DNA of 4,564 nucleotides, from IMG/VR virus record IMGVR_UViG_2609459824_000008; one strand, 5' to 3'. Of this stretch, positions 3,983-4,564 are shown one piece after another. The number at the start of each line of letters is the position of its first letter. Positions within the stretch are counted from its first letter, which is position 1. The position numbers and the translations under genes are program-made. The notes under the pieces were generated by a model. That model was given only the letters and a program-made list of their open reading frames with translations. It was not told the origin of the DNA and did not search any database. The stretch comes from a virus. Lineage: Duplodnaviria; Heunggongvirae; Uroviricota; Caudoviricetes.

Positions 3983-4564
3983 TCAACGAATACTGATGCC
4001 GGAAGCGGCTTTTTTGGTCACAATCACCGTACAGTCGGTGATATTGCCTGCCCCCTGATTGCCTTTCTGGAAAATCTTAAACTCCAGAGTGACGCTTCCC
4101 CTGCCACTCGGCATATCAATAACCGCACTGTAGCTACCGGGAATGGCCCCTTTAGTTTCTCTGGATGCGATTAATACGCCGTTTTTGCGAACTTCAAAAC
4201 CATAACCCGTGTATCTTGTACCTCCCGGGTTATTACCACTTCCCGGATCGCTATACGCTATTCCGTTAAAGATAATGGGCGGAATAATAATTTGACGGTC
4301 AAAGTTATGATCATCGCTGATGGTGACTGTAACCGTCCCGTTTGGTGTTTCCGTATTACCCCACGTACCAGCCTGTTTCGGGAATGATTTGGATACAGCT
4401 TTAACGAAGTCACCTCTGACCTGAGTCGCCTCCAGCATGCCCTTAATCGTACAGTTTTCATTTACCGTGACATTGTTGAGCGTCCCGGCGTTCGCATTCA
4501 CACTGCCACTGATATCCGCATTTTTAGCGGTCAGCTTTCCGTCCGGTGTCAGGGAAAATGCCGG
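3983..4564 (-). CDS. J: Tail tip / host specificity protein J, C-terminal 193 codons; the 5' end of the gene lies beyond the window end
   Basis: The reading frame is open from the window edge (4564) to the TGA stop at 3985-3983. Hand translation upstream of the track ORF gives ...[42 protein letters not shown]..., matching the lambda gpJ C-terminal region ([21 protein letters not shown]) from memory. The track's M at 4501 is an internal GTG (Val), not the true start. Confidence 0.9.
   Translation of the reverse strand, partial: [193 protein letters not shown]

Follow-up and report, generated by a model that had tools for sequence, protein, structure and literature searches.

A phage 434-type receptor-binding module at the end of a lambda-like protein J, with OmpC as its probable receptor

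The window, a stretch of 4,564 nucleotides from a member of the Caudoviricetes (IMG/VR record IMGVR_UViG_2609459824_000008), breaks off inside gene J, and the visible end of J starts out like that of phage lambda and then departs from it. The locus therefore raises the question of where the departing part belongs among lambdoid J proteins and which host receptor it would recognise. We consider it highly probable that the C-terminus of this J is the phage 434 (h434) allele of the lambdoid specificity region, a module transferred by recombination, and that its receptor is OmpC. The end of the gene was divided as follows.

3983..4564, minus strand: 3' end of gene J (tail-tip or central tail fibre protein), from translation and BLASTP to lambda J
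4439..4564, minus strand: conserved part of J, residues 1-42 (lambda 945-986), 37 of 42 residues identical to lambda
4439..4450, minus strand: approximate place where the lambda-like backbone meets the 434-type specificity module, a mosaic (recombination) junction, from 30-nt identity bins
3986..4438, minus strand: receptor-binding (specificity) module, residues 43-193, of the 434 (h434) type, from PF12421, alignments, and AlphaFold2 with Foldseek

The J fragment consists of 193 codons at 3986-4564 on the minus strand with a stop codon at 3983-3985, and the gene exits the window at 4564. The reading frame is open across all 193 visible codons, and RefSeq annotates near-identical E. coli loci as 'gpJ: phage attachment tail tip protein J'. 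In lambda, residues 1-42 correspond to the bottom of the beta-prism 'central straight fibre', directly above the receptor-binding domain (PMC11101478). The Ig-like Ig_GpJ_C domain occupies residues 57-192, inside the specificity module, and the stop codon lies immediately 3' of it, which places the domain at the extreme C-terminus of J, after the conserved fibre segment. The downstream gene order is J-lom-stf-tfa, as in lambda. The coordinates, strand and peptides given for this region in the earlier note were all correct. We rejected two other open reading frames, one of 99 codons on the plus strand (3875-4174) and one of 67 codons on the minus strand (4258-4461), because they fall within or run against the J frame, which is strongly supported, and lack support of their own.

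We compared the fragment with lambda J. BLASTP aligned it to lambda residues 945-1131 with 47% identity (E = 4e-50), and this identity is unevenly distributed, at 88% for residues 1-42 and 35% (54/155) for residues 43-193. The same step is seen in the nucleotides, of which 111/120 (92.5%) match lambda from 4564 to 4445 and 232/474 (49%) from 4444 to 3983. In 30-nt bins, identity to lambda is 0.83-1.00 across 4564-4445 and 0.27-0.70 from 4444 onward, so that a sharp junction lies near position 4445, at about lambda residues 985-987. The earlier note had recognised lambda gpJ in the segment just upstream, and the peptide that it quoted is one residue off lambda's. It had also described the C-terminal part as clearly diverged; this was borne out by the 35% identity over residues 43-193, and near-identity over the C-terminal part did not appear in the pairwise alignment with lambda gpJ. 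Its statement that only scattered motifs are shared makes too little of the similarity: the motifs that it named (DDHxFDRQI, (V/I)(I/V)DMPxGRG and GIS, the last as part of a conserved KKxxxGIS) are indeed common to lambda J and the fragment, but the homology is continuous and highly significant over the whole domain.

The lambda-type, LamB-binding J allele would be expected to show high identity to lambda residues 987-1132, the loops that touch the receptor included, whereas the module has 54/155 identical residues and indels at four sites. These indels adjoin lambda 1011/1012 and lie around 1050-54, around 1077, and at 1103 and 1108-1110. The divergence is not concentrated in the predicted loops, as identity to lambda is 32% in predicted strands and 40% outside them. 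Since identity is no lower in the predicted loops, the module is an old allele rather than a lambda domain with remodelled loops. We conclude that, from about lambda residue 985 onward, the lambda-like backbone of J gives way to a receptor-binding module of ~150 residues; this module is a homologue of the one in lambda, with which it shares the Ig-like fold, but represents an old separate allele.

The fold was assessed in several ways. Residues 57-192 match Pfam PF12421 (Ig_GpJ_C) with E = 5.4e-27 and 95 bits, well above the curated cut-off of 26.2 bits, over profile positions 1-134 of 135; Pfam describes this family as 'Tip attachment protein J, C-terminal receptor binding domain'. A sequence search of the PDB returned lambda gpJ (8xcj, 8iyk), with matches spanning the whole fragment, and 'A8 gpJ 713' (9wca, 9wcb). 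An AlphaFold2 monomer model built from 29 aligned sequences reached moderate confidence (mean pLDDT 76.9), with pLDDT mostly 75-95 for residues 51-180 and the N-terminal 50 residues poorly placed. The best four Foldseek matches of this model in the PDB were 8xck, 8xcj, 9wca and 9wcb (E from 5.8e-17 to 1.2e-14, probability 1.00), and the fifth was far weaker (3e-4). The TM-scores, at only about 0.62, suffer from the first 50 residues of the model, which are unplaced. The lambda gpJ structures, closed (8xck) and bound to LamB (8xcj), have the same Pfam domain, fold and C-terminal position as the window module; those of A8 gpJ, closed (9wca) and bound to OmpC of E. coli EDL933 (9wcb), have the same domain family and fold. 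The lambda-like fold proposed in the earlier note thus holds in the predicted model, given the full-length PF12421 match, the PDB sequence matches and a Foldseek ranking headed by lambda gpJ.

The closest classical relative is phage 434. Its J (UMO75286.1) is identical to the fragment at 179/193 positions (93%) with no gaps, and in the module alone at 142/151 residues (94%) without indels and at 426/462 nucleotides. Binned over 30 nt, identity to 434 remains within 0.80-1.00 throughout, with no drop at the junction. The two phages share the place of the junction with lambda-like sequence and all gaps against lambda, so that both near-identity without indels and the pattern of junction and indels are those of the 434 (h434) allele. 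Of the 14 substitutions that separate the two J proteins over 193 positions, nine are in the module (S60A, Q64K, A65V, N75D, S105D, R155G, I164V, Q166H and G171R), and residues 60, 64-65, 75, 105, 155, 164, 166 and 171 are polymorphic among natural 434-type sequences. On sequence grounds, the diverged module is not a new variant; it is the long-known phage 434 version.

We searched 50,697 phage records by translated search with the J fragment, and 267 matched. Among these, 74 are ≥ 90% identical, 192 are <60% identical and one lies between, a split which indicates that J allele classes are discrete. The ≥ 90% group includes phage cdtI, many Stx1a- and Stx2c-converting phages, phage 2851, mEp460, Ayreon, phi458, prophages of the ECOR collection and Lambda h434 imm21. 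The J of phage cdtI (BAF63351.1) is 99.5% identical over the whole fragment and 150/151 in the module, with I164V as the single difference. The J tips of Stx1a and Stx2c phages, mEp460, Ayreon and ECOR PhiR phages are 95-98% identical to the fragment; in the visible part, there is essentially no difference between the tips of all these phages, cdtI included, and that of the window. The J of lambda h434 imm21 is 92% identical. At least 96% identical tips occur on three phages recorded as grown on E. coli K-12, namely PhiR26_1, phi458 and Ayreon. The OmpC-binding J allele of the phage 21 and A8 type is not the one carried by the window, as the phage 21 and A8 gpJ modules are 39% and 41% identical, respectively, to residues 43-193. 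Separately, we note that alignment columns 801-950 of the cdtI J, the J protein nearest to that of the window, form a second divergent shaft module, 28-60% identical to lambda and 434, which maps upstream of the part of J present in the window.

We then considered the receptor. According to the literature (PMC3509688, citing Fuerst & Bingham 1978; PMC11101478), replacement of lambda's J by that of 434 switches the phage to OmpC, the receptor of 434 itself, and a study from 2025 describes the 434 central fibre as OmpC-targeting (PMC12502783). The genome sequences of lambda h434 hybrids come from Feiss et al. 2022 (PMC9119081). Between lambda J and 434 J, identity is 92-100% as far as about residue 985 and 28-48% thereafter, and the hybrid J is identical to lambda until about alignment column 750. 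Together, these patterns show that the large J difference linked to the receptor switch is the same C-terminal module. The hybrid also carries lom, stf and tfa of 434, so OmpC use cannot be attributed to the J module from this hybrid alone; the attribution goes back to older genetics cited in reviews. As an aside, the sequenced lambda h434 imm21 differs from phage 434 at two module residues (AYDNPG versus AYDDPG and GNQW versus GNQR). Because the window module is 94% identical to the OmpC-using module of 434, its receptor is probably OmpC rather than LamB. The suggestion in the earlier note that the receptor may differ from that of lambda is supported by this likeness.

A mechanism can be proposed by analogy with the solved lambda gpJ-LamB (8xcj) and A8 gpJ-OmpC (9wcb) complexes and with the genetics of 434. 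In lambda, four bottom loops of a trimer of Ig-like domains enter the trimeric porin from its extracellular side; on binding, the domains move apart, the beta-prism twists, the helical shaft flips and the tail tip opens (PMC11101478). Three J chains of the window phage would likewise form a trimeric tip, as in 8xck and 9wca, and the bottom loops of the three domains would enter the extracellular mouths of a trimeric porin, here OmpC instead of LamB. Porin binding would spread the three domains, and this would twist the beta-prism above them, flip the helical shaft, open the tail tip and start DNA ejection. The alignment places A8 gpJ with phage 21 and not with 434, so no 434-type tip structure has been solved yet, and at the 39-41% identity of the A8 class to the window module, the residues that contact OmpC in A8 are not directly transferable.

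Recombination at the conserved flank would pass the module from one lambdoid phage to another. In the work of Maddamsetti et al. 2018 (PMC6646904), residues 960-1132 make up a 'specificity region' that was shown to recombine independently of the remaining J, with lineage-defining indels at 1012, 1048-49, 1077-78 and 1107, in a data set that took in cdtI, mEp460 and Ayreon. The indel sites of the window match these lineage-defining sites, and its module is a textbook member of one such lineage.

The features downstream of J, given here as context, are the following.

3943..3960, minus strand: GC-rich hairpin between J and lom, then TTTTTTATT on the minus strand, a terminator-like site in the scan
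3313..3912, minus strand: lom (Ail/Lom outer-membrane beta-barrel protein), directly downstream of J, from Pfam PF06316 (Ail_Lom, E = 1.9e-121)
222..3248, minus strand: stf, side tail fibre of 1008 residues, from Pfam phage_tail_N, Gp34_trimer and Collar
1..222, minus strand: 5' end of tfa (tail fibre assembly chaperone), a 74-residue translation 99% identical to the start of lambda Tfa

The order J, terminator, lom, stf, tfa is also that of phage 434. The terminator scan placed the J-lom hairpin on the plus strand only, and a T-run is present on the minus strand too; the annotation of phage 434 has a terminator at the corresponding place between J and lom, and the hairpin is probably an intrinsic terminator after J. 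The window Lom is only 44% identical to lambda Lom, which makes it a different Ail/Lom allele, and it has the same length as that of phage 434 (199 residues). The Stf proteins differ in length, at 437 residues in phage 434 and 1008 in the window. Several hundred residues of the window Stf form a low-complexity shaft rich in Ala, Ser and Thr, and the last 245 residues (764-1008), which contain repeated HxH motifs, match lambda orf-314 (the Stf C-terminus) with 64% identity. The ATG of tfa (220-222) shares one base (222) with the stf stop codon. The earlier note had counted the elaborate stf as a sign of a host range distinct from lambda; with a Stf tip 64% identical and a Tfa start 99% identical to lambda, we regard this argument as weak. 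Within the Ala/Ser-rich repeats of stf, there are also long alternative-frame or antisense open reading frames at 1844-2851 (minus), 2014-2751 (plus) and 2426-3025 (plus), of 335, 245 and 199 residues; judging from their low-complexity translations, they are most likely compositional artefacts.

Other readings of the module have to be weighed against the 434 allele with OmpC as receptor. The earlier note had allowed for a variant LamB, and a diverged binder of LamB or of a variant LamB would explain why the domain has the family and fold of lambda's LamB-binding domain and keeps several of its motifs. We consider this reading very improbable, because the module is 35% identical to lambda's with indels at four places and 94% identical to the OmpC-using 434 module, and because OmpC is bound by other family members with ~40% identity, among them A8 gpJ, for which the complex has been solved (9wcb). 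A subtler reading keeps the 434 type and supposes that the common natural cdtI/Stx1a/Stx2c sub-allele has a shifted specificity, either for certain OmpC variants only or for an additional or different porin such as OmpF. Small differences can matter in this region: the nine module substitutions relative to 434 all fall at naturally polymorphic positions; in lambda and phage 21, a few substitutions in the C-terminal region of J can be enough to gain a further receptor or to alter receptor use (PMC6646904, PMC11336670); and gpJ chimeras differ in the OmpC variants that they accept, A8 using OmpC of both MG1655 and EDL933 and 1A2 that of EDL933 only (PMC11338833). The peptide and DNA of the window were absent from the supplementary files of this base-editing paper from Eligo, which describes the A8 and 1A2 chimeras. 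A shifted specificity is nevertheless unlikely, given the 94% identity to 434 without indels, the recorded K-12 hosts, like that of 434, of phages with tips at least 96% identical, and the absence of evidence for any other receptor. In the literature searched, we found no receptor experiment for the ECOR PhiR phages (PV3405xx), mEp460, Ayreon, phi458 or cdtI.

It is also conceivable that the prophage is defective and that the module survives in it as a relic that has lost its role in adsorption. Many such E. coli prophages are cryptic, J is visible in the window only as its last 193 codons, and many of the database relatives are fragments or fusions to unrelated N-termini. In addition, matches to some part of J-lom-stf-tfa occur at a median of 3 places per E. 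coli genome, with a maximum of 17. Set against this are a frame that is open over all 193 codons, a tip that is one residue from that of phage cdtI, which was deposited as a complete phage genome, and intact downstream lom and stf genes together with an intact start of tfa, and we think it improbable that the module has lost its function. The 434 allele with OmpC as receptor remains our preferred reading.

We assessed how common this allele is by searching 5,426 complete E. coli genomes with the 456-nt module alone (window 3983-4438) and with the lambda module (L001:3464-3904). The 434-type module was matched in 2,112 genomes and the lambda module in 98, all 98 with ≥ 99% identity; the five listed of these 98 matches are laboratory strains, DE3 lysogens included. 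The 434-type module is thus about twenty times commoner in complete E. coli genomes than the LamB-type module of lambda, and lambda's allele is the rare one in nature. Matches to the J module in the protein database came also from Escherichia albertii and Shigella sonnei. In three database proteins (P0015, P0111 and P0112), the J receptor module is joined to unrelated N-terminal sequence, and P0111 carries a second Pfam domain, PF13007, which is not a J domain; these fusions suggest that J genes are truncated or rearranged in some genomes.

Knowledge of allelic replacement in the J specificity region, and specifically of the 434 allele, dates back to the 1970s, and the modular evolution of the region was analysed in 2018. 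The J tip of the window is ordinary: it belongs to the classical h434 type, which is the usual one in E. coli, and is not an unusual feature of this E. coli prophage. For annotation, the prophage can be labelled as having a 434-type J tip that probably uses OmpC. The module is found on toxin-converting phages (Stx1a, Stx2c and cdt), so variation in OmpC is probably relevant to their spread. If the sub-allele carried by these phages did have a shifted specificity, it would contribute to which E. coli lineages the Shiga-toxin and cdt phages can lysogenise.
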